Source: Candidatus Woesearchaeota archaeon (GTDB lineage Archaea; Nanobdellota; Nanobdellia; UBA10117; JABICX01). From it: DNA of 64,000 nucleotides. Where the stretch lies: the NCBI GenBank assembly GCA_018692915.1, contig JABHLG010000013.1, positions 7,993 to 71,992 of the forward strand, written 5' to 3'. Made by a program: the position numbers and the translations under genes. Under the pieces are notes generated by a model. That model ran no database searches. It was given only the letters and a program-made list of their open reading frames with translations, and was not told the origin of the DNA. Below, piece after piece: positions 5,263 through 63,735 of the stretch (position 1 is its first letter; each line of letters begins with the position of its first letter).

Positions 5263-5573
5263 TTAGCCTTTGACTACGACTAGCGGTTTTAGTTTAGCAA
5301 CCTTTTTCGCAAGTCCGGTTTTATGAAGAACACCAATCAGCTTTTGACGTGCAAAAGCTGGCAAAACACTTTCCTGCGCATTGCTTGGAAAATTAACCTT
5401 TTACAACCACTATTGGCTTCAACTGAGCTTTTTCTTACAGAAAAAGTTCGCAAAAAGAACGTTGTTTTTCCAAAACAACTGCTTCGCAAATGCAATTTAT
5501 CCTTTTACAACTACAAGAGGTTTCAATTTAGCAACCTTTTTCGCAAGTCCGGTTTTATGAAGAACATCAATAA
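5263..5573. repeat. Nested terminus-duplication locus at the rtcB 3' end
   Basis: On the plus strand the order is displaced copy 3 (5263-5339, encodes VLHKTGLAKKVAKLKPLVVVKG*) and a B-type hairpin element (5340-5392). Then come displaced copy 2 (5393-5422, LKPIVVVKG*), an A-type element (5423-5496) and the functional rtcB end (5497-5573). Confidence 0.85.
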
Positions 5574-16470: not shown

Positions 16471-17247
16471 ATGAAATATATATTCAAACTATCTGGAGAG
16501 AATTATAATCTAGCAAAGTTTGAATTAGAAACTTTACTTAACAAAAAGCTGAAACGAAACAAAGATTCTGTTTCAATTGATTTGCCATTATCTACTGAGC
16601 AAATTAATAAAATTTGCAATCGCTCTGCAATGATTCAGAAATGCTACACTAATAACTTAAAAATTTGGGCAGCTAAATCAGACAAACGATTTGTTGCGAG
16701 GGTGCCGAAAAAGAAACCTAAACAACATCCTGCAATGCTCAAACCAAAGATGGCGCGTTTACTTGTAAATCTCACTAACGCTAAAAAACAGATTCTAGAT
16801 CCCTTTTGTGGAACTGGTTCAATTTTAATTGAAGCGGGAATTCTTGGTCTAAAACCTATTGGCTCAGATATTGATAGTAAAATGATCGAATACTCAAAGA
16901 TCAATACCAAACAATTCAAAGTTAAATCGGAACTAAAACAACTTGATGCAACTCAACTAGAAACTAATTTTAAAAATATTGAAGCAATTGCATGCGACCC
17001 ACCATACGGTATAAGTTCTACTCTTGCTGGAAAGAAAATGCAAGATTTATATCCAGACTTTCTAACAAGTGCAAATAAAATTCTAAAAAAAGGTTCTCGC
17101 TTAGTAATGGTTCGACCACATTATCTAAAACTTGGAGTCAACAAAGACTGGAAAAAACTAGGAGAATTTGACTGGTATATGCACAAAGGACTTACTAGAA
17201 AAATATTAGTACTTGAAAAAAGAAGTGCTACGAGCAATGCGAAGTAG
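16471..17247 (+). CDS. SAM-dependent RNA methyltransferase (Trm11/UPF0020-like, N2-guanine type)
   Basis: DPFCGTGSILIEAG (motif I) and ACDPPYG (motif IV). The last 7 codons (SATSNAK) read into an inserted element. Confidence 0.6.
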   Translation: MKYIFKLSGENYNLAKFELETLLNKKLKRNKDSVSIDLPLSTEQINKICNRSAMIQKCYTNNLKIWAAKSDKRFVARVPKKKPKQHPAMLKPKMARLLVNLTNAKKQILDPFCGTGSILIEAGILGLKPIGSDIDSKMIEYSKINTKQFKVKSELKQLDATQLETNFKNIEAIACDPPYGISSTLAGKKMQDLYPDFLTSANKILKKGSRLVMVRPHYLKLGVNKDWKKLGEFDWYMHKGLTRKILVLEKRSATSNAK

Positions 17248-17335
17248 TGTGCTTTTGCCAGCTTTTTCACTAAAAAGCTGTGTGTATATGCACAAAGGAC
17301 TCACTCGGAAGATTTTAGTATTAGAAAAGAGGTAA
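17175..17335. repeat. Terminus-duplication locus at the methyltransferase 3' end (B-type element)
   Basis: Copy 1 is 17175-17223 (YMHKGLTRKILVLEKR). The element is 17224-17283 and contains hairpin agctttttcactaaaaagct. Copy 2 is 17284-17335 (YMHKGLTRKILVLEKR*). Confidence 0.85.
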
Positions 17336-19617: not shown

Positions 19618-19750
19618 GCGCTCGTGGTCTAATGGCTCATGATTCTAGCCTTCCAAGGAATCCCTTCTTAGAAAGAAGGTCTTCCAACCCCAAGAACTAT
19701 TCTTGTGGAGAGGAGAGCTGGAGGTAGGGGTTCGATTCCCCTCGGGCGCA
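19618..19750 (+). tRNA. tRNA-Gly(UCC) with 60-nt intron at 37/38 (19656-19715)
   Basis: Hand fold. Acceptor gcgctcg/cgggcgc, anticodon stem ctagc/gctgg, loop ctTCCaa, T arm agggg-ttcgatt-cccct. The intron carries the D-type core aatcccttcttagaaagaaggtcttccaaccccaagaac. Confidence 0.8.
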
Positions 19751-19997: not shown

Positions 19998-20052
19998 TAA
20001 GGATGTTAAAATATATAACATTTAAACAGTTCACTAAAACAAAGGTTTTGGC

Positions 20053-20652
20053 ATGAAATTAGGAATTTTATTTAGTGGTGGAAAAGATAGCGCTGCTGCT
20101 TTATTTTGGGCACAGCAACAGCACGAGCCAGTTTGTTTAATTACAATTGATTCTGAAAATAAAGATAGTTATATGTTTCATACAGACAAAGTTCAAGAAA
20201 TTCCGAATATTGCAAAACGAATTGGTTTGCCTTTAATCTTCAAAAAGACAAAAGGGGAAAAAGAAACTGAACTCAATGATTTAAAATCAGCTATATTAGA
20301 AGCAAAAAATAAATTTAAAATTGAAGGGGTTGTTTCTGGCGCACTTGCATCTGAATATCAACGACAGCGAGTTGATGTAATATGCCAAGATTTAGGATTA
20401 GCTTCATTTGCTCCACTTTGGCACAAAGACCCTGAACAATATGTTAGAGAATTAATTGATTTGGGATTTAAAATTAAAATAGTTAGAGTTGCTGCAGAAG
20501 GTCTTGATGAAAGCTGGGTTGGCAAATATATTGATAATAAATTTTTTAACAAACTTCTCGAGCTAAATCAAAAATATAGTGTCCACATTGCAGGCGAGGG
20601 TGGCGAATATGAGTCATTTGTAGAAGATGGTCCTATTTTCTCTAGTAAATAA
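20053..20652 (+). CDS. diphthine-ammonia ligase-like ATP pyrophosphatase (Dph6/MJ0570 family)
   Basis: MKLGILFSGGKDS PP-loop and GEGGEYESFV. Confidence 0.65.
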   Translation: MKLGILFSGGKDSAAALFWAQQQHEPVCLITIDSENKDSYMFHTDKVQEIPNIAKRIGLPLIFKKTKGEKETELNDLKSAILEAKNKFKIEGVVSGALASEYQRQRVDVICQDLGLASFAPLWHKDPEQYVRELIDLGFKIKIVRVAAEGLDESWVGKYIDNKFFNKLLELNQKYSVHIAGEGGEYESFVEDGPIFSSK

Positions 20653-30211: not shown

Positions 30212-30466
30212 TTAAGAATATATTTTCTTAATCCAATACTTTTTGAAAAAAGGTAAAGTCAATGTTGATAAAACAAAAGCCACTGCAGGTATTATAGCAT
30301 TTAACCAAGGATCTGGAATATCTGCTGACCACAAAAAGACAGCTATTACAATATAAGTTAGCACTCCAATCAGAACTTTTCGAGTTATACTAATTTCCCA
30401 CGCTTTATCTGATTCTACTTTCTTGTTTCGTTCCTTTATTTTTTTTATCTCTAATTCTATTTTCAT
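30212..30466 (-). CDS. small two-TM membrane protein
   Basis: 84-aa ORF with hydrophobic segments. Confidence 0.35.
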   Translation of the reverse strand: MKIELEIKKIKERNKKVESDKAWEISITRKVLIGVLTYIVIAVFLWSADIPDPWLNAIIPAVAFVLSTLTLPFFKKYWIKKIYS

Positions 30467-30515
30467 GCTAAAACCTCATTTTTAGCAAGCTGTTTAAATG
30501 TTTCACATTTTAACA

Positions 30516-30869
30516 TCATAACATTTGTAATTTACTTGTAACTTTATCTATATCTTTATCTTCTGCTGGACCAATTGCGCAAGCTGTTACAGTTCCAGGT
30601 TTAAGTTCAGTCATTCCTGCATCTGCAATAACTGCTGTTGTTAATCCAGCATCATCTGCTTCTTGTTTATATTTATAAAGGTCTTTCTGATTATCAACTT
30701 TCAAAACAACTTTTTTCATTCCACTAAGTCGCCATGCTGAGAACGTAATTCTATTTTTCTTTTTAGACTTAAGAGAAGCTTCAACAGCTGCGTGACTCGA
30801 TTGCGCTGCTAGTTTTCCTCGGCTCATCTTCAAATCTGTCCGAATTAATATTACTTGTTTGTAAGCCAT
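30516..30869 (-). CDS. pth: peptidyl-tRNA hydrolase, archaeal Pth2 type
   Basis: KQVILIRTDLKMSRGKLAAQSSHAAV. Confidence 0.85.
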   Translation of the reverse strand: MAYKQVILIRTDLKMSRGKLAAQSSHAAVEASLKSKKKNRITFSAWRLSGMKKVVLKVDNQKDLYKYKQEADDAGLTTAVIADAGMTELKPGTVTACAIGPAEDKDIDKVTSKLQML

Positions 30870-30900: not shown

Positions 30901-31039
30901 TTACTCGTGACGTAAAGCATCAACCAGCTTTTTAGAAAAACCGAGCGACTACGTCGCGTGGCCACGCTAAAGTGTAACTTTAGCTTGGAGTTGGCAAAAA
31001 ACGATTGTTGACGTTTTACTCATGACGAAGTGCGTCAAC
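30901..31039. repeat. Terminus-duplication locus at the ABC permease 3' end (B-like, extended and structured)
   Basis: Displaced copy 30901-30924 (VDALRHE*), 91-nt insert 30925-31015 with several hairpins and the ggcaaaaaacg motif, functional end 31016-31039 (VDALRHE*). Confidence 0.8.
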
Positions 31040-33144: not shown

Positions 33145-33836
33145 TTCTCTCTCCTTTTTTTCTCAATTGCACCATCTTTTAACCAAAAGACATTATCTAC
33201 ACCTTTAAGTTTTGCGAATCGAGGATCGTGAGTTACGATAATTAATGTTTTTTTATGTTTTTCATGTAAGTCTAATAGCAAATCCATAATTTGCTCGCCC
33301 ATTTTAGAATCAAGATTTCCTGTTGGTTCGTCAGCAAGAATAATTTCAGGGTCATTAGCAAGTGATCTTGCAATTGCTACTCTCTGGCGCTCTCCACCAG
33401 ATAATTCACCGGGGCGATGAGTCATACGTTCTCCAAGGCCGACAAGCCGTAGTATTTTTTTTGCTTTTTCAACTTTATCTAAAACAAATGATCTCTTAAA
33501 TATCATCGGTAATGTAACATTCTCAATAGCTGTTAATGTTGGAATTAAATTAAATGTTTGAAAAACAAAACCAATTTTCTCTCCACGAACTTGTGCAAGT
33601 GTGCTCTCATCCATATGTGCAATATTCCTTCCATCTAATTTAACAATGCCTTTTGTTGGTAAATCTAACGCACCAACCATATTCATTGCAGTTGATTTAC
33701 CTGAACCAGATGGCCCCATAATAACTGCAAAATCTCCCTTATTTATTGTAATATCTAAACCTCGCAGTGCCGGAACTTCAACACTACCCATCTGATAAAT
33801 CTTCCAAACGTCTTGAACATCAATTATAGCTTTCAT
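33141..33836 (-). CDS. ABC transporter ATP-binding protein (MacB/LolD-like)
   Basis: Walker A GPSGSGKST, LSGGERQR, ILADEPTGNLD. Confidence 0.9.
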   Translation of the reverse strand: MKAIIDVQDVWKIYQMGSVEVPALRGLDITINKGDFAVIMGPSGSGKSTAMNMVGALDLPTKGIVKLDGRNIAHMDESTLAQVRGEKIGFVFQTFNLIPTLTAIENVTLPMIFKRSFVLDKVEKAKKILRLVGLGERMTHRPGELSGGERQRVAIARSLANDPEIILADEPTGNLDSKMGEQIMDLLLDLHEKHKKTLIIVTHDPRFAKLKGVDNVFWLKDGAIEKKRREK

Positions 33837-33924
33837 TTATACCTCCGAAGTTTGTGAGACTCGCTAAAATTTTGTTTAGCTCTGTCTTCCAAACGCCTTG
33901 CACATCTATTATTGCCTTACTCAT
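33801..33924. repeat. Terminus-duplication locus at the ABC ATPase 5' end (E-type element)
   Basis: Functional start copy 33801-33836 (MKAIIDVQDVWK), element 33837-33885, displaced start copy 33886-33924 (MSKAIIDVQGVWK). Confidence 0.8.
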
Positions 33925-35864: not shown

Positions 35865-36036
35865 GAGCCAGTAGCTTAGTCTGGATAACCGTTAGGTTCT
35901 TGCTGAACCTTGGTTCAGGAATAGAGCACTTCCCTCCTAAGAGCTTTTTCTTTTCTAAAGAAAAAGTTCGCAAAAAGAAACTAATTTTTGTAAAAGAGGT
36001 AGGAAGGGGTCGCAGGTTCGAATCCTGTCTGGCTCG
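35865..36036 (+). tRNA. tRNA-Arg(CCU) with two introns (D-loop 35888-35923; 37/38 position 35941-36001)
   Basis: Hand fold. Acceptor gagccag/ctggctc, D stem gctt/gagc, anticodon stem cttcc/ggaag, loop ctCCTaa, T arm gcagg-ttcgaat-cctgt. The canonical intron carries the A-type core gagctttttcttttctaaagaaaaagttcgcaaaaagaaac. Confidence 0.75.
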
Positions 36037-39084: not shown

Positions 39085-39633
39085 TTATTTTTTATTAACT
39101 AATTTTGATATATTACCAAATGCTTTTCTAACATGTTTAGCTTTTGTAGTAAATTCTCCTGAATGTCTAATTAAATCATAATGTTGGACAGCATTAACTA
39201 TATCATCTAATCCCTCAGTTGATATAAACTTAGCTGAAAGCATTAAAGAATTCACGTGCGTACCTCTACCCTGTCGACCGCTAATGTGTCTCTCTTTTTG
39301 TATAGGATTATCTAATCCATATTTTTCAGATATATATTCTGCTAATCTAATTACAGCTAATTTATTATATAAATTATAATTATTATCTTGATTTACAAAA
39401 CCTTCTTCTAATTTTAAACTTGGCTCTTCTATATCCCGTTCTAAAACAATATCTATTGTAATAATTCCATCAAAATCAATTTTCTTGAACTGTTGTGCTA
39501 AATTATCTGAAATTGGCTCTAAAGAAGTTTTAACACTATAAGTATTATTTTTAAAGTCTAAGTCATATTTATCGCCGCCTTGGTGTTTACAAACACCTGC
39601 TTCATTTAAATATCTCCGAACTTTATTTTCCAT
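39085..39633 (-). CDS. hypothetical protein
   Basis: 182-aa ORF only. Confidence 0.3.
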   Translation of the reverse strand: MENKVRRYLNEAGVCKHQGGDKYDLDFKNNTYSVKTSLEPISDNLAQQFKKIDFDGIITIDIVLERDIEEPSLKLEEGFVNQDNNYNLYNKLAVIRLAEYISEKYGLDNPIQKERHISGRQGRGTHVNSLMLSAKFISTEGLDDIVNAVQHYDLIRHSGEFTTKAKHVRKAFGNISKLVNKK

Positions 39634-39683: not shown

Positions 39684-39811
39684 GCCTCTATAGCTCAGCT
39701 GGTAGAGCGTTACCCTCGTAAGAATCCCTTTCTTGTAAGAAAGGTCTTCCAACCCCAAAGAACGGATTCGGAAAAAGGTAAAGGTCGCAGGTTCAATTCC
39801 TGCTAGGGGCT
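39684..39811 (+). tRNA. tRNA-Thr(CGU) with 55-nt intron at 37/38 (39721-39775)
   Basis: Hand fold. Acceptor gcctcta/taggggc, D arm gctc-agctggta-gagc, anticodon stem ttacc/ggtaa, loop ctCGTaa, T arm gcagg-ttcaatt-cctgc. The intron carries the D-type core. Confidence 0.85.
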
Positions 39812-39920
39812 CTAACCTAAATAAGAAATATCTTTTATATCTCAGCTTTCTTCCAAGAAAGCTGGCAAAGAAACCTGCTAACTCAGTTGCTTCGCATTAG
39901 CCAAGGTAGCTAATGTCTTT
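39812..39920. repeat. Terminus-duplication locus at the PAC2-like gene 3' end (B-type element)
   Basis: Displaced copy 39812-39835 (KDISYLG*). Element 39836-39896 (cagctttcttccaagaaagctggcaaagaaac...gcttcgca). Functional end 39897-39920 (KDISYLG*). Confidence 0.85.
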
Positions 39921-40634
39921 TTTATCTTTGATTTGCTTGGTTTCTTTTGATTTTTGCATTAGCTCTTTTAGTTTAGCTTCTACGTTCTTTGCTTCAGATA
40001 AGAGTGGTTTTGTATCAACTTTTAAGCCGATATATTTATTTAGAACTTCAATCAGCGCTGCTGCAGCATGGCTATCTGGCATGTTTGTATGTGTTTCTGC
40101 AAAAATAAATGATGATTTTATACTGCCAATTGATTTTTCCATAATTGCACCTGTAACTCCAACAATCATACCTTCTGTTAGCTTTTCTGGTCCTTTTAGA
40201 GCTGCTAGCTTTTTCTCGCAAGCAGGTGAATTTGAATAATAAAAAGTCCGAGCCATAGGATTTCCAAACGGTGAGCCAACACCTTCTAAACTAATCATTT
40301 CTTTTGCTTTTAATTGACCTGCAATTTTCATAACAACATCTGCTAGCTTCCATTCCATTCCTTTAACTCCAGAAAGAGCGTGCATTAACACTAAATTTTT
40401 CTCTTTTACATAAAATATCTCAAATATATGTCTCAGCCGATTGTGATGAATTGTAGCAATTGGTGGCATTTCTTCTGACCAAACATAACCAATTGGTTTA
40501 GCATTTAGCTTCTCAACTAAGTATTCTGTTGCAATTGTTCCAACAAAACCCAAACCAGGAAAACCTTCGATAATAATCGGGCTCTTGGGCTTAAAAGTAA
40601 GATTAATCTCCATCCTATCTATTTGCTCAATCAT
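39897..40634 (-). CDS. PAC2-family proteasome assembly chaperone-like protein
   Basis: IIIEGFPGLGFVGTIATEYLV motif. Start is ATG 40634, or 40613 if leaderless behind the tatatat box. The track ORF extends further upstream. Confidence 0.6.
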   Translation of the reverse strand: MIEQIDRMEINLTFKPKSPIIIEGFPGLGFVGTIATEYLVEKLNAKPIGYVWSEEMPPIATIHHNRLRHIFEIFYVKEKNLVLMHALSGVKGMEWKLADVVMKIAGQLKAKEMISLEGVGSPFGNPMARTFYYSNSPACEKKLAALKGPEKLTEGMIVGVTGAIMEKSIGSIKSSFIFAETHTNMPDSHAAAALIEVLNKYIGLKVDTKPLLSEAKNVEAKLKELMQKSKETKQIKDKKDISYLG

Positions 40635-42016: not shown

Positions 42017-42263
42017 CTTTTCTATCTCTCGAGATCGAAGATCTCCAGATACACTAAAGAGAATAAAAGTAAAACCAAACGCTAGGAAATCTGAAATCTT
42101 AGAAGAAACTGAAAATGAAATTAAGATTGCAATAGCTGCACCTGCACAAGATGGAAAAGCAAATACCGAACTTATTCGATTTCTAAAAAAAGAACGCAAT
42201 TGGAAATGTAAAATTGTTTCAGGGCTAAGATGTAAGAATAAACTTATTCAAATCCAAGAATGA
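41988..42263 (+). CDS. DUF167 (YggU-like) protein; start uncertain
   Basis: IKIAIAAPAQDGKANTELIRFLKK...IVSGLRCKNKLIQI. The present C-terminus (..QIQE*) reads into an inserted element. Confidence 0.55.
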   Translation: MVIKKNKKSDFSISRDRRSPDTLKRIKVKPNARKSEILEETENEIKIAIAAPAQDGKANTELIRFLKKERNWKCKIVSGLRCKNKLIQIQE

Positions 42264-42367
42264 ATTTCGCGACGAACAGATAAAGTGTTCTGAGGAGCGA
42301 AGTGGTGCGAACTGGCGCTGTCAGTTCATGTAAAAGGAAAGACTAATAAGAATAAACTTATTCAAAT
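42233..42367. repeat. Terminus-duplication locus at the DUF167 3' end (C-type element)
   Basis: Perfect 21-bp direct repeat taagaataaacttattcaaat (42233-42253 and 42347-42367) around a 93-nt insert containing gcgacgaacagataaagtgttctgaggagcgaagtg. Confidence 0.85.
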
Positions 42368-42370
42368 TCT

Positions 42371-47148: not shown

Positions 47149-47283
47149 ATGGATAAAATTCATATATACACGCAAGGATGCACAGGAGCTTTTTCCGCTT
47201 CGCGCAAAAAGTTCGCAAAAAATACATATTATAGAGGTTACTCAAAATGATAAAAATCTATATACATACACAAGGTTGTACAG
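47149..47283. repeat. Terminus-duplication locus at the MiaB-like gene 5' end (A-type element)
   Basis: Displaced start copy 47149-47185 (MDKIHIYTQGCT). Element 47186-47246 (gagctttttccgcttcgcgcaaaaagttcgcaaaaaatac...). Functional start 47247-47283 (MIKIYIHTQGCT). Confidence 0.8.
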
Positions 47284-48341
47284 CTAATCAATCAGATTCT
47301 GAAGTTATAGCTGGGCTGCTCAAAGAAGCAGGTTATAAACTAACTGATTTGAAAAATGCAGATTTAGTAATATTTAATACATGTAGTTTGAAAAGTCCCA
47401 CTGAGCAAAGTTTATTTAGGAAAATTCAAGACAATGCTAAAACTAAAAAAATAATTATTGCTGGCTGCTTTCCACTTTCATTTCCAGAAGATAAACGATT
47501 GAAAAACTATTCCTTACTAGGTAGCTTTGATTTGAAAAAAGTTGTTGATGTTGTTAGTAAAACACTAAATGGCAAGCGCGTTGTTCTGCTTAGTCGAAAA
47601 GCAGAAGATAAATCCTGTCTTCCAAAAATCAGAGATAATCAAAAAATTGCAAAAGTTGTAATATCAAAAGGCTGTCTTTCAAACTGTGCGTTTTGCGCGG
47701 GAAAAAAAGCTCGGGGAAAATTAGAAAGCTACAGTATTACAAATATTATATCTGAAGTTCAAGCTGCTGTTGCAGATGGATGCAATCGAATTTATTTAAC
47801 TTGTCAAGACACTGGCTGCTATGGCTTTGATCAAAACACAAATCTTATTGAGTTAGTTAAGAAAGTACTTGCAGTTAAAGGTAATTTTAAAGTTCGGATT
47901 GGAATGATGAGTCCACAGTGGGCTCTTAAATTATTACCTGAATTAATTGAAATTTATAAGCATGAAAAAGTTGTGAAATTCTTGCACATTCCTGTTCAGT
48001 CTGGCTCAGATAAAATTCTAAAGCTAATGAATCGGCAATACACTATAGCTGAATTCAAGAAGGTTGTTGAAACTTTCCGCAAACAGGTTCCAATAGACAG
48101 CATTTCAACAGATATAATTGTTGGCTTTCCTGGAGAGACTGAAGCAGATTTTAAGAAAACCGTTGAGCTGTTACAGTGGTTGAAGCCAGAAGTTCTGAAC
48201 ACAACAAAATACTGGCCTCGAAAAGGCACAGTTGCCGGTGATAATTACTTTAATTCAATTGATAATCCAAACAGCCATCAAGCAAAAGAGATTTCTAAAA
48301 TCAAACAAGAGCGAGCACTAATTCTACATCAATTAAAATAA
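47247..48341 (+). CDS. MiaB-like radical-SAM methylthiotransferase (archaeal e-MtaB/CDKAL1 type)
   Basis: N-terminal UPF0004 domain (HTQGCTANQSDSE) and radical SAM cluster CLSNCAFCAG. Confidence 0.75.
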   Translation: MIKIYIHTQGCTANQSDSEVIAGLLKEAGYKLTDLKNADLVIFNTCSLKSPTEQSLFRKIQDNAKTKKIIIAGCFPLSFPEDKRLKNYSLLGSFDLKKVVDVVSKTLNGKRVVLLSRKAEDKSCLPKIRDNQKIAKVVISKGCLSNCAFCAGKKARGKLESYSITNIISEVQAAVADGCNRIYLTCQDTGCYGFDQNTNLIELVKKVLAVKGNFKVRIGMMSPQWALKLLPELIEIYKHEKVVKFLHIPVQSGSDKILKLMNRQYTIAEFKKVVETFRKQVPIDSISTDIIVGFPGETEADFKKTVELLQWLKPEVLNTTKYWPRKGTVAGDNYFNSIDNPNSHQAKEISKIKQERALILHQLK

Positions 48342-50742: not shown

Positions 50743-50867
50743 CTATGCGTATTCTCTCCAAGTGTGATTGCCATTTTCTTTCTTGAAAGAAAGAAACTAT
50801 GCTTCCAAAGAAAGAACATATACTCGTGCTTCGCACGCAATTATGCGTATTCTCTCCAAGTGTGATT
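50743..50867. repeat. Terminus-duplication locus at the tfs 3' end (D/B-like element)
   Basis: 27-nt repeat (50743-50769 and 50841-50867, NHTWREYA*) with 26/27 identity, TAG vs TAA. It flanks a 71-nt insert gccattttctttcttgaaagaaagaaactatgcttccaaagaaagaac...gtgcttcgcacgcaa. Confidence 0.85.
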
Positions 50868-51155
50868 ACATTTAATGCATCTATAAAATTGGGTCTCTGC
50901 TTCATCAGTAGATCTTGTTTGTAATGACCAATTATATGCTTCAAGATGTTTGCATTTTGGGCACTTTTCTTTAACTTTTGCTAAAGTATCTGCAGTTTCC
51001 TCTTTAACTTTATGATTATCTTCGCAATCTGCTTTTTCTTTTAAAGATAATTCTGCTTTTGAATGTGATGAGTAACCACAAGAACAATGTATATTCTTCT
51101 TATCTGAAGATGGAATTAATAGACCACCACATTTTGGACAAAAAGGTGTGTTCAT
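50841..51155 (-). CDS. tfs: transcription factor S / RNAP subunit M family
   Basis: N-terminal CPKC..C.C ribbon and C-terminal CPKC...QTRSTDEAETQFYRCIKCNHTWRE TFIIS ribbon. Confidence 0.85.
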   Translation of the reverse strand: MNTPFCPKCGGLLIPSSDKKNIHCSCGYSSHSKAELSLKEKADCEDNHKVKEETADTLAKVKEKCPKCKHLEAYNWSLQTRSTDEAETQFYRCIKCNHTWREYA

Positions 51156-55304: not shown

Positions 55305-55351
55305 AGAATGTAATATAGTCTTAAGTATATATATTTTTTGTGTTAGTTATT

Positions 55352-55441
55352 ACTGACGAAGTCTGTTCCACTGACGAAGTTAGTGATACTGACGAAGTCT
55401 GTTCCACTGACGAAGTTAGTGATACTGACGAAGTTAGTTGT
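55352..55441. repeat. Tandem repeat, five 18-bp units (actgacgaagtctgttcc / actgacgaagttagtgat alternating)
   Basis: Read directly. Units start at 55352, 55370, 55388, 55406 and 55424. The last unit overlaps the stop of the 1167-aa ORF. Confidence 0.9.
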
Positions 55442-58400
55442 TATGTAGATATAGCGAAGCAATATACATCATACTAATAACTGCAACACCTAAAATTATC
55501 ATGATTTTATTCCTATCTAGACCGCTTCGATCTAATAGAGGGTCTAATATATTTATATCAGTAGTAATTCTATCTTTACATTCTTTAATATATGTGTCTA
55601 AAACTCTGTGTGCTTTAGAAAAACTGCCACCATAGTAAAAAGTTTTTGCAGATTGAACATGTTCTAAATATTCAATACACTCCGGATTTGTCTTAAATAA
55701 ATCTTCAATGAATCTTACTTTTGCAAAAAATGATTCATCATCGTCTTCCTTAATTTTAATTACGAAAGTTTCACTATCAGTTACATCCATAGGTTTTATT
55801 GCTTTACCAGTTATAGTTGCATTATATTCTCCAGATGTAGCTAAATAAGTTGTAAATTTAACTGTAATTGTCTGGTTTGTTTTAGTAGGAAGCTTATCAA
55901 TAGTATTTTTTTCTAAATTAGCATCAAAACCAGATATAGTTGGGAACAAACTATTCAAGCTAATATCTTCTAAATCTTTATCACCATCGTTTATAATAGT
56001 TAATTGAGAAATCTTTGCATCAATTGGATACATTTCAACATCATCCATATTTAATTTAAGAGATACAACTTTAACACTAGAACCGCCTCCACCTGAAGAT
56101 GGTGATGATGTAGACTCAGATGTAACAGCATTAACAATTAAACTCGTATTTGCTGTCAAATTTTCACCAGAGGCATCTGTTGCAATAAAAGTCACTGTCT
56201 CTGTTCCAGACCAACCCGATGTAGGTGTAAATGATGCTAAATGACTTGCATTTGCAATAGATACCAATATATTTTCATTGCCTGATACAGTAAAGTTTAA
56301 AGCATAACCATCAGGGTCTAAAAAGTAATCATCTAAATCAGGTCCTTGCTGTACTGAACCAGTATTCCATGTATAATTAGGGATTTGCTTTGTAAGGTTA
56401 ACAAAAATATATGGGCTCTCATTAAATCGCATTTCTCCATATGCACTAGCTGTATCATTATCACCTAAACCAAAGAAAGTTGTTGCTTGTATACTATCAT
56501 TAATTGTTCCGTTTGTGTATGGACTATACATAATATATGAGAAATTTGTGTAATTTATCCCATATTGTGAAGCAACTAAACTTGTAACATTAATTGTCGA
56601 ATTACCTGTAGAATTAATATCTGTAAGATTTGTATTTAATCCAGCAGTCATACCTGTAAGAATATCATAATTTTCAGTTGAGACCCAACTCTCATTTGTA
56701 ATTTCTTCGACAGTAATACTTCCATTCCATTCAGTTGTTACTATCGATGTATTAATTATTATACTAGCATTATTAATTGATATTACATCTAAATCATATA
56801 ATCCTGTTGCATTAAATTTAAGGAAACTTTTTTGGTTGTAATATGTATCATCATCAAAATCTCCTGCACATACAACTGCACCTTCTTGCAAATTAAGATT
56901 AACATAAGATTCATACATCTCAGGGTTTTGATTTACATAAAAATTACTTGCATTTCCAGATGAACAAGAACTTGAGTCACATACAAAAATCCATATGCCT
57001 GTCGTTATATTATCTGTGCTCAAAACAGTGTAATTACAAGAAACATTATAATTTGTTGTTTCATTTACAGAGCAGAAAGTTGTTTCATTACAACCTGCAG
57101 AAGTATTTGCTGTGCTTGTATTACAAACATAAACTGAAACATTTGTGCTATCCACATCTGACCATGTGAAATTAAATAAAATTGTATTATTAACAGGAGT
57201 TCTATTAAATGAATCTGAATCAGAAGTTAAAATATTAAGTGTTGGTGCTGATGCGCCTATTGTAATATTTGTAGAATTAATAAACGTAGTATTTTGATCT
57301 GTTACATTAACGGTACAATTCCACATATTATCAATTCTTGTTTCTGAATCATTTATTGTTTCGCTTGAATTACATGTTGTGCTTTGTGTACAACTAATAT
57401 CTGTTTCAGTGAGATTTAATGTCCAAGCACCACTAACATTTAGATACCAATAAACTTCTGCAGTTATATTTACATCTGAATCATTACTTGCAGTATACCA
57501 ACTACATGAGAGATTACTATCATTATTTGGAGAACTTGGTGATATTGCTACTTGTGACAATTCAAGTGCATCATAAACACCTGTAACATTCATAAGAACG
57601 CCATATGAATCACTCGTATCAATTCCATCTGATGCAGTAAATGTAATTGTTTCTGAATTATTCCAATTATCATCAGGAGTTAAAGTTACAACACCTGTTG
57701 CAGCAATTGAAACAGTTATGTTTGTATTACCTGAATAAGTAAATGTTAAGGTATCATTCTCAGTATCATTAAAATAATCACTTAAATTAAGACTAGTATT
57801 AGCTGTATCTTCTGGCCAAGTCATATTTGGAATATCTGTATGAAATGAAGGTGCAGTATTTTCAGTAACTGTAATAACAAGTCCTTCTGATGCTGCATCA
57901 TTATCTTCAGAACGTGCAATAGCTGTTACATTAAAATCTCCTATGCTTCCAGTTGAAGCAGGTTGAAAAGTCAAATTTCCTGTTGCATTAGTATCGCCTG
58001 CGGTTACACCACTAATTGTTGCTATTGAAACCCAGCTAGGGTCACTATCTCCAATATCAAATGTTATTGTTTCGCCATCAGTATCATTTGCAGTTATTGT
58101 AATTGATAAATTATGACCTTCAACAACAGATTGGTCTGCAATTGTATGTATTGTTACACTACCACTAGTTCCTTCAGTAATTTCATAAGATGAAAAACCC
58201 GTTATACTTCCTCCAATAAATGCGAAACCTGTTACAAAAAGAAGCGCAAGAACAAATATTCCAGTTACTTTTGCAAACTTTAAATTATGAATTGGAGTTA
58301 AAAATTCATCTTGCTTAGGGATTTTAATTTTCTTTGGTGCTTTTGGAGAATCATTAAAGTTATTTGCTAGATTAATTGCATAATCAATAAACTTTTTTAG

Positions 58401-58937
58401 ATGTTTATCATCAATTTTATTTTCTTTGTATCTAGAAACCATGATGAATTTGAAAATCCTAATTAAATCGTGCTTTAATTTAACACTTTTATCTGAAGAA
58501 TTAATCCGTTCCATTAATTCTTCATATGTTGCATTACTATTGCCACCAATTATTTTGCTAACAATTTCTTTAAATGTAATACAAAAACGATCTGTTGCAT
58601 CTTCTAAAGTAATACTATCAAAATCATTATGTAAATTATTAAGTTTAGATATTTGTTTATCCAAAGGTAATTTGACGTTCTTCTTCTTAACTTTAAATCT
58701 TACAAATAATTCATCAAAAGATAAATTTAATCTTTCTTTTTCAAAAAGAATCATAAAAATAAGAATTATAGGTAAAATAACAAACGTACTTGCAAAATAT
58801 CCTCTATGTTGGCATCCAGAAGGCAAATTACATAAATAATAGAAAAATCCAATAAATATGATTAACAAAAATACAATTGTTGTAAATATTAATAAGGGTG
58901 TAATTTCTTTCATATAATTTACTTTAACTTTACCCAT
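55434..58937 (-). CDS. giant membrane-anchored surface protein with Ig/cadherin-like repeats, extremely rich in N-x-S/T sequons
   Basis: 1167 aa. N-terminal TM segments, then a DUF4129-like cytoplasmic domain, a TM segment and an SITGFSS motif. Repeated modules follow (L.LSDYFNDTENDTLTFTYSG...ITFTASDG...), then a Ser/Gly linker and a C-terminal TM. Confidence 0.6.
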   Translation of the reverse strand: MGKVKVNYMKEITPLLIFTTIVFLLIIFIGFFYYLCNLPSGCQHRGYFASTFVILPIILIFMILFEKERLNLSFDELFVRFKVKKKNVKLPLDKQISKLNNLHNDFDSITLEDATDRFCITFKEIVSKIIGGNSNATYEELMERINSSDKSVKLKHDLIRIFKFIMVSRYKENKIDDKHLKKFIDYAINLANNFNDSPKAPKKIKIPKQDEFLTPIHNLKFAKVTGIFVLALLFVTGFAFIGGSITGFSSYEITEGTSGSVTIHTIADQSVVEGHNLSITITANDTDGETITFDIGDSDPSWVSIATISGVTAGDTNATGNLTFQPASTGSIGDFNVTAIARSEDNDAASEGLVITVTENTAPSFHTDIPNMTWPEDTANTSLNLSDYFNDTENDTLTFTYSGNTNITVSIAATGVVTLTPDDNWNNSETITFTASDGIDTSDSYGVLMNVTGVYDALELSQVAISPSSPNNDSNLSCSWYTASNDSDVNITAEVYWYLNVSGAWTLNLTETDISCTQSTTCNSSETINDSETRIDNMWNCTVNVTDQNTTFINSTNITIGASAPTLNILTSDSDSFNRTPVNNTILFNFTWSDVDSTNVSVYVCNTSTANTSAGCNETTFCSVNETTNYNVSCNYTVLSTDNITTGIWIFVCDSSSCSSGNASNFYVNQNPEMYESYVNLNLQEGAVVCAGDFDDDTYYNQKSFLKFNATGLYDLDVISINNASIIINTSIVTTEWNGSITVEEITNESWVSTENYDILTGMTAGLNTNLTDINSTGNSTINVTSLVASQYGINYTNFSYIMYSPYTNGTINDSIQATTFFGLGDNDTASAYGEMRFNESPYIFVNLTKQIPNYTWNTGSVQQGPDLDDYFLDPDGYALNFTVSGNENILVSIANASHLASFTPTSGWSGTETVTFIATDASGENLTANTSLIVNAVTSESTSSPSSGGGGSSVKVVSLKLNMDDVEMYPIDAKISQLTIINDGDKDLEDISLNSLFPTISGFDANLEKNTIDKLPTKTNQTITVKFTTYLATSGEYNATITGKAIKPMDVTDSETFVIKIKEDDDESFFAKVRFIEDLFKTNPECIEYLEHVQSAKTFYYGGSFSKAHRVLDTYIKECKDRITTDINILDPLLDRSGLDRNKIMIILGVAVISMMYIASLYLHNN

Positions 58938-61614: not shown

Positions 61615-61910
61615 AAATCCCTAACTTTCTTCCTCAGAACTCAAGATATGTTCGTCAGAAAATTAACATAATATATTAATAAATAATATTATATTTCTTA
61701 ATTAAAATTAAAGTCCTCTTCCTGTTGCACAAACTTCAGGTGAAGTTTGATCACACCTTTGCTCCTCAGAATCCAAATTATATTCGTCGCAAAATAATGC
61801 CATTGGTTAACCAATTACTAAATTGAAAATCTCTAAATTTTCATTAAAAATCAATATAACATATTAATATACACATTTAACTCTATTCAAAATTAAAGTC
61901 CTCTTCCTGT
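61615..61910. repeat. Terminus-duplication locus at the 3' end of gene 61893-62534, with two tandem C-type units
   Basis: 22-bp perfect repeat aaaattaaagtcctcttcctgt at 61704-61725 and 61889-61910. C-type cores are ...cttcctcagaactcaagatatgttcgtcagaaaat (61629-61663) and ...tgctcctcagaatccaaattatattcgtcgcaaaat (61760-61794). Confidence 0.75.
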
Positions 61911-62534
61911 AGCTGTAATTGTTGCACTTAGAGCTCCTGTTTGATTTGCATCTGTTGGGATAATTAATTGTATTTCAACATTAATTGAATTATTAGCTTG
62001 ATTTGCATCAAGAACAGAACAAATAATATTTGCTGAAGTGTTAATATCTGTAAAACTTGTGTCAACTATATCTGCACAGGAATCTGATTCATTTTGTTCG
62101 ATTTTCCATCTAAAAGCAGGGTCTGAACCACCAACAAAATCTTCAGCAGTTTTATTTGCTGTAAGATTTAACTCAATTAAATCTCCACCAATATTTTCAA
62201 GAACTAAAGATTGACTTGTAGCTGTCCAATTTCCCCCAGTTACTGATTTCGCATCTGTATCTAATGTAGCATTTTCAAAACCACCTGTAACTGAGCCAGT
62301 TCCCCAATCTATTGCTGCTGACGTCCAATTAATTGCTGTAACAGATTCTATTGTTACTGTAGCGGTTGCATTTGAATCTGATGTAACAAAACCTGTAAAT
62401 CCCATACTATCTCCTAAAAAGAAATCAACCATAGACAAACTAATAGCTACAACTAACAAAAGAGCTAATAGCTCATTTGATATATTAAATCCTTTTCTTT
62501 TGCTAGACTGTCTCTTCCTGCTCACCATTTTCAA
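61893..62534 (-). CDS. secreted protein with pilin-like (class III-like) N-terminus
   Basis: KRKGFNISNELLALLLVVAISL N-terminus followed by FTGFVTSDS. Thr/Asn-rich with many sequons. Confidence 0.4.
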   Translation of the reverse strand: MKMVSRKRQSSKRKGFNISNELLALLLVVAISLSMVDFFLGDSMGFTGFVTSDSNATATVTIESVTAINWTSAAIDWGTGSVTGGFENATLDTDAKSVTGGNWTATSQSLVLENIGGDLIELNLTANKTAEDFVGGSDPAFRWKIEQNESDSCADIVDTSFTDINTSANIICSVLDANQANNSINVEIQLIIPTDANQTGALSATITATGRGL

Positions 62535-62727: not shown

Positions 62728-62780
62728 TAATTATAATATATCTTATTCTATATAAACTTTATGTGAATTTTAATAGAATT

Positions 62781-62889
62781 AATTAAAATTACTAACATCC
62801 TGTTCCTGTGTAATCCCTTCTTTTAAAAAGAAGGTTTTACAATCCCAAGAAATAAATTATAATTAAAATTACTAACATCCTGTTCCTGT
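62781..62889. repeat. Terminus-duplication locus at the 3' end of gene 62872-63735 (D-type, tRNA-intron-like element)
   Basis: Perfect 29-bp direct repeat aattaaaattactaacatcctgttcctgt (62781-62809 and 62861-62889). It flanks the 51-nt element gtaatcccttcttttaaaaagaaggttttacaatcccaagaaataaattat. Confidence 0.9.
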
Positions 62890-63735
62890 CTGGACATATC
62901 TGAAATTTACTACATTATTGTATGTTCCTGCAGGTTGTGAAAGTGGTATTGATAACCAGAATCTAAAGTATTCATTATCTCCGCCTGCTACATTAGTGTC
63001 TGCATTTACAAAGCTAGTTGTTAATCCTGTAGCGCTTCCGATTGCAGGTGTTGTTGAACTTGTTGATATTGCAGATACCCATGTCATATTATCTAATCCA
63101 AGACTATTATCTGTGCTGTTTAGGTCATCGTCTGCGTTTACGCAGAAGTCAATTGGCACATTGGAATCATTAGATACTGCCAAATACATTGAACTTCCAC
63201 TACTATCGTTATTGTAGTTGTCTGTAGCATTATTATTATCTGTTCCTGCTGTTGCTGTTCCAAATTCAATACCATCTAATAAATTATCAGATCTAGCAAC
63301 TGCGAAGTAAGCAGTAATATTTGCTTCTGCTGTAACTTGCGAACTATCTCCTGCAAATCCTGTAATACTTGTTGGGATTTGTATTCCAGCTAGCGCTGCA
63401 AGAACCATCATAAATATTGCAGCTACTCCAAATGCTTTCTTTGCACTTTCTCTGAAGTCTGCCTTTGCTTTATTGTGTCTTAAAGCATGCAAGGTATCTT
63501 CAAACTGTGTTTTTCTTTCAACCCACTCTGCATCCCATTGTTCTGTTGTTTTGCCTTCAAGGATTGCATTTCTATGTAATAGATAGTGTTCTTGGTCAAG
63601 CACTCCTGCTGCAAACGCAGTATTTAGTTCCTCTAGCTTTCTTGCTATTTCTGTCCGTTTAGCTTCTAATCTCTCGAGAGATGTTTCTAGGTAGCTTATT
63701 TTCCTATCTGAAACAAAGCTAAACTTTCTAGACAC
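62872..63735 (-). CDS. membrane protein with N-terminal coiled-coil, TM and Asn/Thr-rich ectodomain
   Basis: 287 aa. TM segment followed by SITGFAGDSS. No family recognised. Confidence 0.4.
   Translation of the reverse strand: MSRKFSFVSDRKISYLETSLERLEAKRTEIARKLEELNTAFAAGVLDQEHYLLHRNAILEGKTTEQWDAEWVERKTQFEDTLHALRHNKAKADFRESAKKAFGVAAIFMMVLAALAGIQIPTSITGFAGDSSQVTAEANITAYFAVARSDNLLDGIEFGTATAGTDNNNATDNYNNDSSGSSMYLAVSNDSNVPIDFCVNADDDLNSTDNSLGLDNMTWVSAISTSSTTPAIGSATGLTTSFVNADTNVAGGDNEYFRFWLSIPLSQPAGTYNNVVNFRYVQTGTGC

Follow-up and report, generated by a model that had tools for sequence, protein, structure and literature searches.

The window analyzed here, a 64,000-nucleotide stretch of DNA from a Candidatus Woesearchaeota archaeon, carries on its minus strand a gene (39897–40634) that encodes a protein of the PAC2 family (proteasome assembly chaperone). 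This assignment rests on the PF09754 domain, which precomputed annotation places in the window protein and in all 120 listed homologs, and on an alignment of 20 homologs, in which the C-terminal motif KKD[ILV]SY[LMV]G is kept across relatives. In one PAC2 relative (P0002, 85% identical), the stop codon is followed by a 176-nt gap. The PAC2 gene converges on a plus strand tRNA-Thr(CGU) gene (39684–39811), which scores 57.9 bits with the Rfam tRNA model and is interrupted at the canonical site, 37/38, by an intron of 55 nt (about 39721–39775). The tRNA-Thr(CGU) gene was missed by ARAGORN in its default mode, which found only one tRNA, and was recovered by Rfam and by ARAGORN with introns allowed.

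The 3´ end of the PAC2 gene is present twice on the minus strand. The end now in use (39897–39926) reads DKKDISYLG* and terminates in TAA, and a second, displaced and untranslated end (39812–39841) reads DIKDISYLG* and terminates in TAG. A preliminary description of this DNA had reported two KDISYLG* copies, and their positions and translations were confirmed on the minus strand; the used copy is encoded by aaa gac att agc tac ctt ggc taa (39920–39897) and the displaced copy by aaa gat att tct tat tta ggt tag (39835–39812). As also reported there, six of the eight codons differ between the copies, all silently and with AGC versus TCT among them, and the displaced stop codon ends at 39812, directly beside the tRNA-Thr discriminator base at 39811. 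The 61-nt gap that had been placed between the copies does hold an element, but the homology extends two codons further (gat aAa aaa in the used end versus gat aTa aaa in the displaced end), so that the repeats are 30 nt each with a period of 85 and the true spacer is 55 nt (39842–39896). The Lys/Ile difference is the one non-silent change within the 30-nt repeats. Both copies thus encode D[KI]KDISYLG*, and the ORF remains intact through the copy that is joined to the gene, while a TGA at 39844–39842 shuts the frame just upstream of the displaced copy and excludes this copy from any larger ORF. Chance similarity over 24 nt, the case that the preliminary description named as its own refutation, can be discounted, as the probability of KDISYLG* arising within 300 nt downstream of PAC2 is ~5e-8 given the base composition. 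The arrangement at PAC2 is identical in an independent contig (L035). These data demonstrate the anatomy of the locus and the silent-only divergence of the KDISYLG* codons.

The 55-nt spacer (39842–39896) is a hairpin element that we call B-type. It lies on the plus strand, i.e. antisense to PAC2, when its sense is taken to be that found in a tRNA intron. The element contains a perfect hairpin, CAGCTTTCTT-cc-AAGAAAGCTG, at 39843–39864, which is followed by GCAAAGAAAC and then by a mini-hairpin, GCTTCGC, at 39889–39895. This corresponds to the family pattern CAGCTTT..AAAGCTGGCAAA..GCTTCGC, and membership of the PAC2 spacer in a family is established by its kin at 5338–5392 and 17224–17283 within the window and at the DPANN loci L016, L025, and L027 beyond it. 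Because the element sequences were gathered with a pattern that fixes the stem, the invariance of the hairpin stem is circular and provides no covariation evidence. No Rfam family matched the PAC2 spacer, even at a permissive threshold, and the 55 nt contain no ORF, there being stop codons in the frame read; nothing in the spacer fulfills what would be expected of an integrase or excisionase of its own. A 9-bp complementarity between 39939–39947 and 39867–39875 was judged compatible with chance. In viral contigs, the longer element pattern had 0 matches and the shorter pattern 59, which is about the chance number by our own estimate. Pattern matches in bacterial MAGs (Acutalibacter, Clostridia) appear to represent an unrelated intergenic repeat.

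The duplication of a gene end around an element is found in at least 10 events in the 64 kb window. The minus strand RtcB gene contains three copies of its 3´ end (5263–5571), one used (5497–5571) and two displaced (5393–5428 and 5263–5337), which are separated by an A-type spacer (5429–5496) and a B-type spacer (5338–5392). At the 3´ end of a plus strand tRNA (G10-N2) dimethyltransferase gene (17175–17331), the used end (17175–17223) is followed by a B-type element (17224–17283) and the displaced end (17284–17334), and the used copy reads into the element (..EKRSATSNAK*) whereas the displaced copy stops at ..EKR*. The 3´ end of a MacB/FtsX-type permease gene (30901–31039, minus strand) harbors VDALRHE* twice, with a period of 115 and differences that are all silent. 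A PF1765-like gene (42233–42368, plus strand) is a 3´-end case in which the displaced end still overlaps the ATG of the next gene; its "C-type" spacer is common to a 3´-end case in an unnamed gene at 61.7–61.9 kb (61702–61914, minus strand), which has a period of 185 and near-identical repeats. Two cases involve 5´ ends, namely a MiaB-like radical SAM gene (47150–47285, plus strand), the mirror image of the others with a displaced start codon region, an A-type spacer, and the used start, and an ABC-transporter ATPase gene (33800–33924, minus strand) with a period of 85. Young examples include the 3´ end of the TFS / RNA polymerase M gene (50744–50870, minus strand), where the 27-nt repeats are identical except for TAA/TAG and the period is 98, and a 3´-end case at 62780–62890 (minus strand), where identical 31-nt repeats extend 12 nt beyond the stop codon and the spacer resembles the tRNA intron at 19660–19700. 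The young loci (50.7, 61.7, and 62.8 kb) have identical repeats, which in two of the three extend beyond the stop codon, indicating that in some insertions, at least, the second copy arises by duplication of target sequence and not by import.

One layout rule holds at 10 or more of the window loci, at 3´ ends and 5´ ends alike: in the element's own sense, a displaced fragment is followed by the CAGC hairpin..GCTTCGC and then by the intact gene terminus. Equivalent layouts are found at the 3´ end of a KaiC-like gene in L016 (Micrarchaeota), where the displaced copies contain stop codons, and at the IscU 5´ end in L025 (Undinarchaeales), where there is a new ribosome-binding site. For eight duplications in the window, the pooled pN/pS between copies is 0.095, with 12.5 non-silent changes observed versus ~66 expected if the displaced copies had been evolving neutrally over half of the divergence.

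In the nearest relative (L006), which shares ~91% nucleotide identity with the window (91.5% over the PAC2 gene body), there is no spacer, and the PAC2 gene finishes with aag gat att tct tac tta gga TAG, a working end of the displaced type (tct, TAG). Relative to this end, the displaced copy differs at 3 of 24 nt, which is ordinary for the gene pair, and the used end differs at 9 of 24, all silent, an excess over the gene-body divergence of 8.5% with P about 1e-4. Judged by this sequence comparison, the displaced copy is the resident, ancestral end of PAC2, a point on which the preliminary description took no position; it is this copy that the element-free L006 end matches, and the used end represents a hyper-diverged patch. 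The element was present in none of the 14 orthologous PAC2 loci examined. Polarity and absence of the element from close relatives are thereby demonstrated. Over the 6.7 kb shared by the window and L006, three elements vary in presence, namely the tRNA-Thr intron, the PAC2 spacer, and the spacer at 42 kb. Relatives also have other ORFs between PAC2 and the tRNA, so that the contact between PAC2 and tRNA-Thr looks incidental.

The preliminary description had proposed the comparison of tRNA-Thr/PAC2 junctions just given and a check of codon usage. In the latter, the displaced copy was found to use the codons that the genome prefers, and the used end to contain five C-ending codons in a genome with a GC3 of 0.18 and to have a codon typicality in the lowest 6%. 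The serine switch between AGC and TCT, from which that description had argued, indeed has no silent path; it is nonetheless weaker evidence than supposed, since TCT, TCG, AGT, and AGC are all found at this codon among the 14 orthologs.

Data from the methyltransferase locus bear on lateral movement. Two relatives, L099 and L100 (~71% nucleotide identity over the gene body), also have the element, at an identical site (55 of 60 positions identical, P = 1e-4), and share the read-through tail ATSNAK* with the window methyltransferase. The element is absent from a closer methyltransferase relative (L097, 76% nucleotide identity). Over the 30-nt terminal part of the gene, the window used end shows 3–4 differences from the L099 and L100 copies and 8 from its own displaced copy, and the window displaced copy is closest to element-free L097 (6 differences). 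Support for a lateral origin of the methyltransferase used end is only moderate (P about 0.015 for all sites and 0.05 for third positions). The L006 polarity, the codon usage, the low pooled pN/pS, and the methyltransferase used end all support the earlier contention that the two PAC2 ends are separately evolved coding ends and not the product of in-place drift.

The elements are also kin to genuine tRNA introns. A B-type module resides inside a 110-nt canonical intron of the L027 tRNA-Thr(GGU) identified by ARAGORN, and the RtcB A-type spacer is ~80% identical over 45 nt to a tRNA intron segment at 35951–35995. One intron family is present in two window tRNAs, the tRNA at 19618 and tRNA-Thr. 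The same tRNA-Thr in L006 has no intron, those of L001 and L012 have introns near-identical to that of the window with different exons, and among relatives the same tRNA-Thr position harbors different introns or none. Two other candidate tRNA contexts, a tRNA-Ser T-loop intron (L024) and a tRNA leader (L026), were assigned by eye only and were set aside, as neither Rfam nor ARAGORN confirmed them.

We consider it probable, though well short of certain, that the PAC2 spacer is a mobile element in miniature that brings along a substitute gene end as it moves, similar to e14 in icd but with no integrase; the enzyme that acts on it is unknown. According to this model, the ancestral PAC2 gene would have ended in aaa gat att tct tat tta ggt TAG, abutting the convergently oriented tRNA-Thr gene at its 3´ end. 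Insertion would have taken place about ten codons ahead of the PAC2 stop, adding 85 nt made up of a coding end that replaces the old one (..gac att agc tac ctt ggc TAA) and, after it, the 55-nt non-coding hairpin element, with the join located in a short stretch common to both copies (GATAAAAAAGA / GATATAAAAGA). PAC2 would then terminate in the imported end with the same protein sequence, and the resident end would be left as an untranslated relic downstream. The element is one of a family of miniature, protein-less hairpin elements that is common in the genome and occurs in several DPANN phyla, with a module also in a tRNA intron, and such elements may persist at gene termini because they bring or create a second copy of the terminus. 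The heavy but silent divergence between the copies would be explained if the element had brought the used copy with it from another lineage. As the PAC2 protein is unchanged, the insertion probably has little direct effect on function.

That the used PAC2 end was imported laterally, and that recombination took place within the short core common to both copies, are inferences. The import is inferred by analogy with the methyltransferase locus, as no second PAC2 carrier genome was readable, and several points weigh against it. Homologous recombination would have had a core of only 11 nt to work with at PAC2, one of them mismatched, which is compatible with a crossover but short (the core is 18 nt at the 17 kb locus and 45 nt with one mismatch at RtcB); an actual crossover was not observed. 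The analysis identified neither a recombinase nor a transposase, and a unit of 55–85 nt is too small for a plasmid-like circle. Patchy gain could be mimicked by precise loss between direct repeats. Finally, codon typicality is opposite at RtcB and the methyltransferase, where it is the displaced copies that carry rarer codons; for RtcB, the relatives L036 and L037 have no element, both codon styles are found among relatives, and which copy is native is not settled.

The used end could alternatively have originated in place. Here the element would have been inserted with a ~30-nt duplication of PAC2's own end and the upstream copy re-coded on the spot, driven by selection for a stem-loop across the stop codon or for lower repeat identity, with the downstream copy not yet decayed. 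That insertion can duplicate its target is evident from the young loci with their identical 27–31-nt repeats, two of which reach beyond the stop codon. Moreover, the used PAC2 end contains a 9-bp stem-loop at 39895–39915 that includes the stop codon and is stronger than 99.45% of synonymous re-encodings (synonymous resampling, 0.0055), and four of the six changed codons (GAC, AGC, GGC, and TAA) are exactly those that this stem needs. By the same resampling, however, re-coding of used ends toward pairing with the element had no significance at six other loci; PAC2 being the only significant case among the loci resampled, pairing with the element was rejected as a general cause of re-coding in working ends. 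An origin in place must also account for 9 changes in 24 nt where, relative to L006, the gene body has diverged by 8.5% and the neutral displaced copy by ~3 nt, which would call for local hypermutation, as well as for a change from TCT to AGC that has no silent path and for a methyltransferase used end that resembles the copies of another lineage. We regard this origin as unlikely, but not to be dismissed.

Another possibility, which we think highly improbable, is that the PAC2 transcript contains the 85 nt as a bulge-helix-bulge (BHB) intron, which the tRNA-splicing endonuclease would remove and after which RtcB would ligate the exons. The in-frame copy inside such an intron would be a fail-safe, whereby spliced and unspliced mRNAs encode the same protein and both copies are under selection. 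Both copies do look selected, a genuine tRNA intron contains a member of the element family, and DPANN splicing endonucleases tolerate relaxed motifs (PMC3239211, PMC12397907). But a relaxed scan (helix / 7-nt / 7-nt / helix), which detects the tRNA-Thr intron with a 5-bp outer helix, a 6-bp inner helix, and a length of 55, found no length-85 candidate at PAC2 on either strand, leaving a BHB motif at this locus without support. The relaxed scan is very permissive in AT-rich DNA, and the few repeat-period hits that it gave at other loci are 4-bp helices, which we do not trust; a strict scan with both geometries misses even genuine tRNA introns and is therefore uninformative. Further arguments against a BHB intron are that the element at 3´ ends is antisense to its host gene, relative to the tRNA-intron orientation, and that there are stop codons in the displaced copies of L016.

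That the duplication reflects chance similarity, or a metagenome assembly artefact in which two strain variants were joined in tandem, is hardly credible. Strain variants do show silent-only differences, but a divergence of 9 of 19 nt beside zero flanking divergence is unlike strain variation, the copies enclose a structured element that has relatives elsewhere, the arrangement is repeated in the independent contig, and the architecture is also seen in the unrelated assemblies L016, L025, and L099; chance alone is countered by the probability given above. Diversity-generating retroelements (DGRs), which are reportedly common in DPANN, feature a near-copy of a gene's 3´ end nearby and a hairpin after the variable repeat, but despite this similarity in layout the reading of PAC2 as a DGR target, with the variable repeat at the 3´ end and the template repeat downstream, is effectively refuted by the substitution pattern (T/C, TCT/AGC, TTA/CTT, and G/A), which is all silent and not adenine-specific, and is opposed by repeats of 30 nt, not about 100 nt or more, and by hosts that are conserved housekeeping genes.

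A broader proposal can be made, which we put forward only tentatively and which may well prove wrong. It holds that DPANN genomes harbor widespread, protein-less hairpin elements of ~50 nt, kin to tRNA introns, which invade the ends of essential genes and spread between lineages carrying a re-coded replacement, the displaced native end serving as the downstream homology arm. If true, these elements would constitute a natural counterpart of "home-and-rescue" drives and would give archaeal tRNA introns, whose mobility has long been unexplained, a concrete way to move at the DNA level. The occurrence of tRNA-intron-family sequences at protein-gene ends comes with a footprint, consisting of a native end that has been displaced, a short core common to both copies, and a working end that is imported or re-coded. 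This footprint makes movement testable by comparing element-bearing with element-free alleles in populations and by determining whether it is the element or the host that working ends track. For annotation, such insertions alter C-termini, as in the ATSNAK tail, and create pseudo-starts and pseudo-ends, and in small DPANN genomes they could be mistaken for assembly errors or strain chimeras. A literature search, confined to open-access text, found no description of such a gene-end/element architecture.

Several known systems share individual features with these elements. CIMEs, MITEs, and IS200/IS605-derived palindrome elements are short, non-coding, multi-copy, and hairpin-rich, with the enzyme presumably encoded elsewhere, and the PAC2 element family is like them in these respects. 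Unlike a MITE or classical transposon, however, the element has ends that differ from each other (the GCTTCGC mini-hairpin versus the CAGC..GCTG hairpin), with no terminal inverted repeats, and instead of a fixed short target duplication it has flanking repeats of 24–75 nt that are variable and partly re-coded. Unlike in IS200/IS605, long duplications flank every gene-end copy, and there is no common target motif at the junctions and no conserved tetranucleotide. Synthetic "home-and-rescue" gene drives contain a re-coded rescue copy and are engineered, with a nuclease. The order of gene body, re-coded terminus and stop, cargo, and original terminus as a possible homology arm is like that of such a drive; here, though, neither a nuclease nor cleavage of element-free alleles has been shown.

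Near-identical introns have been described in different tRNA genes and positions of Thermoproteales, a tRNA intron "transposition" (Fujishima et al. 2010, as cited in PMC4090602), and this likeness is taken there to imply spread at the DNA level by an unknown mechanism. Similarly, one intron family is found here in two tRNAs, and the introns at the tRNA-Thr site vary among close relatives. The Thermoproteales work concerned tRNA genes only, whereas the present cases are protein-gene ends with duplicated termini in DPANN. Sugahara et al. (2012, PMC3293823) modeled tRNA gene disruption in Caldiarchaeum subterraneum as the integration of a mobile element bearing part of its target, from which a displaced gene fragment and a new functional copy result; intron gain is linked to this process. 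The target in that model is a tRNA gene, and at PAC2 it is a protein gene.

The nearest layout is that of e14 and phage 21 in the Escherichia coli icd gene, with its icdC pseudogene. There, the element supplies a substitute 3´ end that keeps the gene intact, the original end persists as a fragment beyond e14, the two ends differ mainly silently, and excision of e14 recombines icd with the displaced fragment (PMC13626634, citing Hill et al. 1989). The PAC2 element is like e14 in icd in that two copies of the host end flank the element and an element-free relative uses the displaced-type end. In contrast to e14, which is about 15 kb and has its own site-specific recombination system, the PAC2 insert is 55 nt with no ORF. 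Also unlike e14, the flanking repeats are 24–75 nt, and a single family, with kinship to tRNA introns, is found at many genes and at both 5´ and 3´ ends.

The PAC2 gene (39897–40634, minus strand; PF09754, common to all listed homologues) ends in the codons aaa gac att agc tac ctt ggc taa (KDISYLG*), and 85 bases downstream on the same strand, at 39835–39812, the same peptide and a stop are encoded again as aaa gat att tct tat tta ggt tag. The preliminary description had claimed this second KDISYLG* and six differing codons among the eight, all silent; direct reading of the minus strand and both translations bear this out. From base composition, the chance of finding KDISYLG plus a stop within 300 nt is ~5e-8. 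The similarity extends two codons further (gat aAa aaa in the used end, gat aTa aaa in the displaced copy), such that the repeats are really 30 nt (39897–39926 and 39812–39841), with one non-silent difference in the extended part, and are parted by a 55 nt spacer (39842–39896); the ends had been placed correctly, but as 24 nt copies 61 nt apart. The displaced frame is closed by a TGA directly upstream. An independent contig, L035, shows the identical arrangement.

The displaced stop ends at 39812 and directly adjoins the discriminator base (39811) of a convergent tRNA-Thr(CGU) gene (39684–39811; Rfam 57.9 bits), as had been described. This gene harbors a 55 nt intron at position 37/38 (39721–39775) and is found by ARAGORN when introns are allowed but not in its default mode. 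The orthologous junctions, to which the preliminary description had pointed, were compared. The PAC2 end of the nearest relative, L006, is of the displaced type and spacer-free. The contact with the tRNA appears incidental, because relatives have intervening ORFs between PAC2 and the tRNA, of 97–99 aa in L001 and L004 and of ~190 aa in L006 (about 3770–4340, on the 3´ side of the tRNA). On the 5´ side, the window contains a 182-aa ORF (39085–39633) that has no Pfam match, is absent in L006 and is unrelated to the ~190-aa ORF; the surroundings of this tRNA gene are thus a variable spot. The window, L001 and L012 share a near-identical tRNA-Thr intron, even though their exons differ at many positions. 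This intron is missing from L006, and other, unrelated introns occupy the same position in L004, L009 and L013.

The spacer is absent from all 14 of the orthologous PAC2 loci compared. L006 is the closest of these (protein identity 94%, DNA identity 91.5% over the gene body; third-position divergence 0.185), and its PAC2 gene ends in aag gat att tct tac tta gga TAG. Compared with this sequence, the displaced copy has 3 differences in 24 bases, a usual level between these two genomes, and the used end has 9 in 24, all silent (P ~1e-4 at the gene-body rate). Codon usage, the other check that had been proposed, separates the two ends: the displaced copy is typical, consisting of the genome’s preferred codons, while five codons of the used end finish in C, against a genomic GC3 of 0.18, and this end falls in the lowest 6% of usage-drawn encodings. 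The L006 match and codon usage thus identify the displaced copy as the resident, ancestral PAC2 end and the working end as a locally hyper-diverged patch. The AGC/TCT serine switch, claimed earlier as an argument for separate copies, does look like the product of separate lineages, yet alone it would not be exceptional, as the serine codon varies freely among TCT, TCG, AGT and AGC across PAC2 orthologues.

Differences between the paired copies are unevenly distributed. Toward the gene interior, the copies agree completely or almost so (10/11 in PAC2, 18/18 at 17 kb and 44/45 in RtcB), and silent changes saturate the terminal part (9/19, 11/30 and 9/30, respectively). Pooled over eight duplications, pS is 0.60 and pN 0.057 (pN/pS 0.095), with 12.5 non-silent changes observed versus ~66 expected had the displaced copies drifted neutrally for half of the divergence; several of the 12.5 are forced intermediates of six-fold codon switches. 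These values support the earlier claim of independent evolution as coding copies, and indicate that most of the divergence arose while both copies were working gene ends, that is, in different genomes.

Duplication of the PAC2 end in place, followed by rapid re-coding, is the strongest alternative, though an unlikely one. It fits the young cases at 50.7, 61.7 and 62.8 kb, in which the repeats (27–31 nt) are identical or nearly so and two of the three extend a few bases beyond the stop; the insertion process can therefore also duplicate the target’s own sequence. It also fits the 9-bp stem-loop into which the working PAC2 end folds over its stop codon, built from precisely the unusual codons GAC, AGC, GGC and TAA and stronger than 99.45% of synonymous re-encodings. 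This stem-loop may be an mRNA end mark or part of the element; in the same re-encoding test, the effect was not general beyond PAC2. However, in-place duplication would need nine substitutions in 24 nt while the neutral relic changed about three, and a passage from TCT to AGC that has no silent path.

On the plus strand the PAC2 spacer reads T CAGCTTTCTT-cc-AAGAAAGCTG GCAAAGAAACCTGCTAACTCAGTT GCTTCGC A: a 10-bp hairpin without mismatches, then GCAAA, then a GCTTCGC mini-hairpin. Its module, CAGCTTT..AAAGCTGGCAAA, here termed B type, parts duplicated ends at two more loci in the window, RtcB (5338–5392, GCTTCGC motif degenerate) and the tRNA G10-N2 dimethyltransferase gene (17224–17283, followed by an imperfect GCTTCGC form). 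A second spacer, A type, is found at RtcB (5429–5496) and at a MiaB-like gene (47.2 kb), and matches, with 80% identity across 45 nt, a segment of an intron in the tRNA at 35865–36036. A third, C type (TTTYGCGACGAA ... TTCTGAGGAGCRAAG), is common to two gene-end duplications 19 kb apart in opposite orientation, at 42.3 kb (42264–42307) and 61.8 kb (61752–61795), and the 62.8 kb spacer resembles the intron of the tRNA at 19618. These two further tRNA genes were detected by Rfam only: 35865–36036 (172 nt) apparently has two introns, the second being the A type, and 19618–19750 (133 nt) has an intron of the tRNA-Thr intron family (75% over 48 nt). A related hairpin element (GCCTTTTTccAAAAAGGTTGGCGAAAA ... 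TTGCTTCGCAA) lies at 1575–1660, just upstream of the ribosomal protein S19 gene; no duplicated gene end was seen beside it. The window also contains tandem 18-nt (36-nt) repeats, TACTGACGAAGTCTGTTC/CACTGACGAAGTTAGTGA, at 55351–55440, within or just upstream of a 1167-aa ORF (55434–58937), and a 61-nt inverted repeat (20002–20062 and 30457–30517; 82% complementary, arms 10.4 kb apart).

At least 10 gene termini in the 64 kb show the duplicated-end pattern: RtcB (twice), the methyltransferase, a MacB-type permease, an ABC ATPase, PAC2, a PF1765-like gene, the MiaB-like gene, TFS and two unnamed genes. One order fits every one of them when read in the element’s sense, namely displaced fragment, element, intact gene terminus; an element at a 3´ end thus lies antisense to its gene, and one at a 5´ end lies in the sense orientation. 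At RtcB (5263–5571), three successive 3´-end copies are parted by B-type and A-type spacers, implying two successive insertions. The outermost copy matches the gene at 44 of 45 nt in its inner part, while its last ten codons differ at 9 of 30, all silently.

That the PAC2 spacer might be an mRNA intron with a fail-safe copy of the gene end is an attractive idea but a very improbable one: there is no suitably placed helix-bulge-helix at PAC2, even with a motif loose enough for the tRNA-Thr intron, and the element runs antisense to PAC2. Three other readings are ruled out: chance by the numbers, an assembly artefact by the agreement of independent contigs and assemblies, and a DGR by the pattern of substitutions.

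Direct evidence that the elements move between lineages is provided by the methyltransferase gene. The relatives L099 and L100 share only 73% protein and ~71% DNA identity with the window, and carry the same element at the same codon, which gives both an identical type of read-through tail, ..KR[SG]ATSNAK*. Of 60 positions in the L099 element, 55 are identical to the window’s (P = 1e-4 against gene-body divergence), and L099 keeps a displaced end of its own that still overlaps the start codon of TatD. L097, a closer relative (78% protein, 76% DNA), has no element, and its end, ..LEKC*, overlaps the TatD ATG. Over the 30-nt terminal part, the window’s working end has 3 differences from the L099 displaced copy, 4 from the L100 working copy and 8 from its own displaced copy, the last being nearest to the element-free L097 (6 differences); over the inner 18 nt, each of the window’s two copies is specific to the window. 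Such a pattern would be expected were a terminal patch to come in with the element and be joined within the inner shared stretch, though the statistical support is moderate (P ~0.015 for all sites, 0.05 for third positions). The [SG]ATSNAK* tail is encoded by the element (window 17224–17247, L099 1260–1283, L100 918–941) and is lacking in most relatives; the element therefore alters the protein C-terminus at this locus. Element turnover is fast: three elements differ in presence within the 6.7 kb common to the window and L006.

When species-representative genomes were scanned with a sequence pattern, the module turned up in several DPANN lineages; the pattern fixes the hairpin, so stem conservation and covariation cannot be judged. 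In a Micrarchaeota MAG (L016), the module follows the stop of a KaiC-like gene and precedes a decayed copy of that gene’s end. In an Undinarchaeales MAG (L025), it splits the IscU start: the native start is displaced and still overlaps iscS as TAATG, and the gene gains a new ribosome-binding site and a new start. In archaeon SO_2017_LW3_27 (L027), it lies within a 110-nt canonical tRNA-Thr(GGU) intron, in the sense of the window’s plus strand. The same archaeon contains tandem arrays of similar short hairpins, TTTTCGCCAGCCTTTTT..AAAAGGCT (L028 5900–6100; L018; L027). Bacterial MAGs also gave pattern matches. Those read in Acutalibacter (L017) and Clostridiales (L021) belong to an intergenic sequence that occurs repeatedly, GCGAAGCGGCGTAAAAGTTTTGCCAGCTTTTTCAAAAGCTG, and is probably a repeat unrelated to the module; L022, L029, L031, L032 and L034 are pattern matches only, their sequence unread.

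At the level of sequence comparison, these data show that an 85-nt unit, the working end plus the hairpin element, interrupts the former last ten codons of PAC2, that the relic is the native end, that the element belongs to a mobile, multi-copy family with tRNA-intron relatives, and that the insertion leaves the predicted PAC2 protein unchanged. We infer, by analogy with the methyltransferase locus and without a second PAC2 carrier having been read, that element and working end were imported jointly from a lineage whose PAC2 had long harbored the element. Recombination within the short shared core would have joined it, leaving the recipient’s end downstream, where it could act as a second homology arm in later transfers. 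Since the 55-nt insert encodes nothing, one has to assume either an enzyme acting in trans or simple repair by homology or microhomology; no such enzyme was identified.

Gene-end replacement by integrating elements and the “transposition” of archaeal tRNA introns are already known. We found no description, in open-access text, of miniature non-coding intron-related elements replacing many housekeeping gene ends across DPANN. The PAC2 case follows the same logic as e14 and phage 21 in icd, which bring the gene an alternative 3´ end and leave icdC behind (PMC13626634), and as the mobile-element model of tRNA disruption in Caldiarchaeum (PMC3293823). Unlike either, the PAC2 insert is only 55 nt and encodes nothing.
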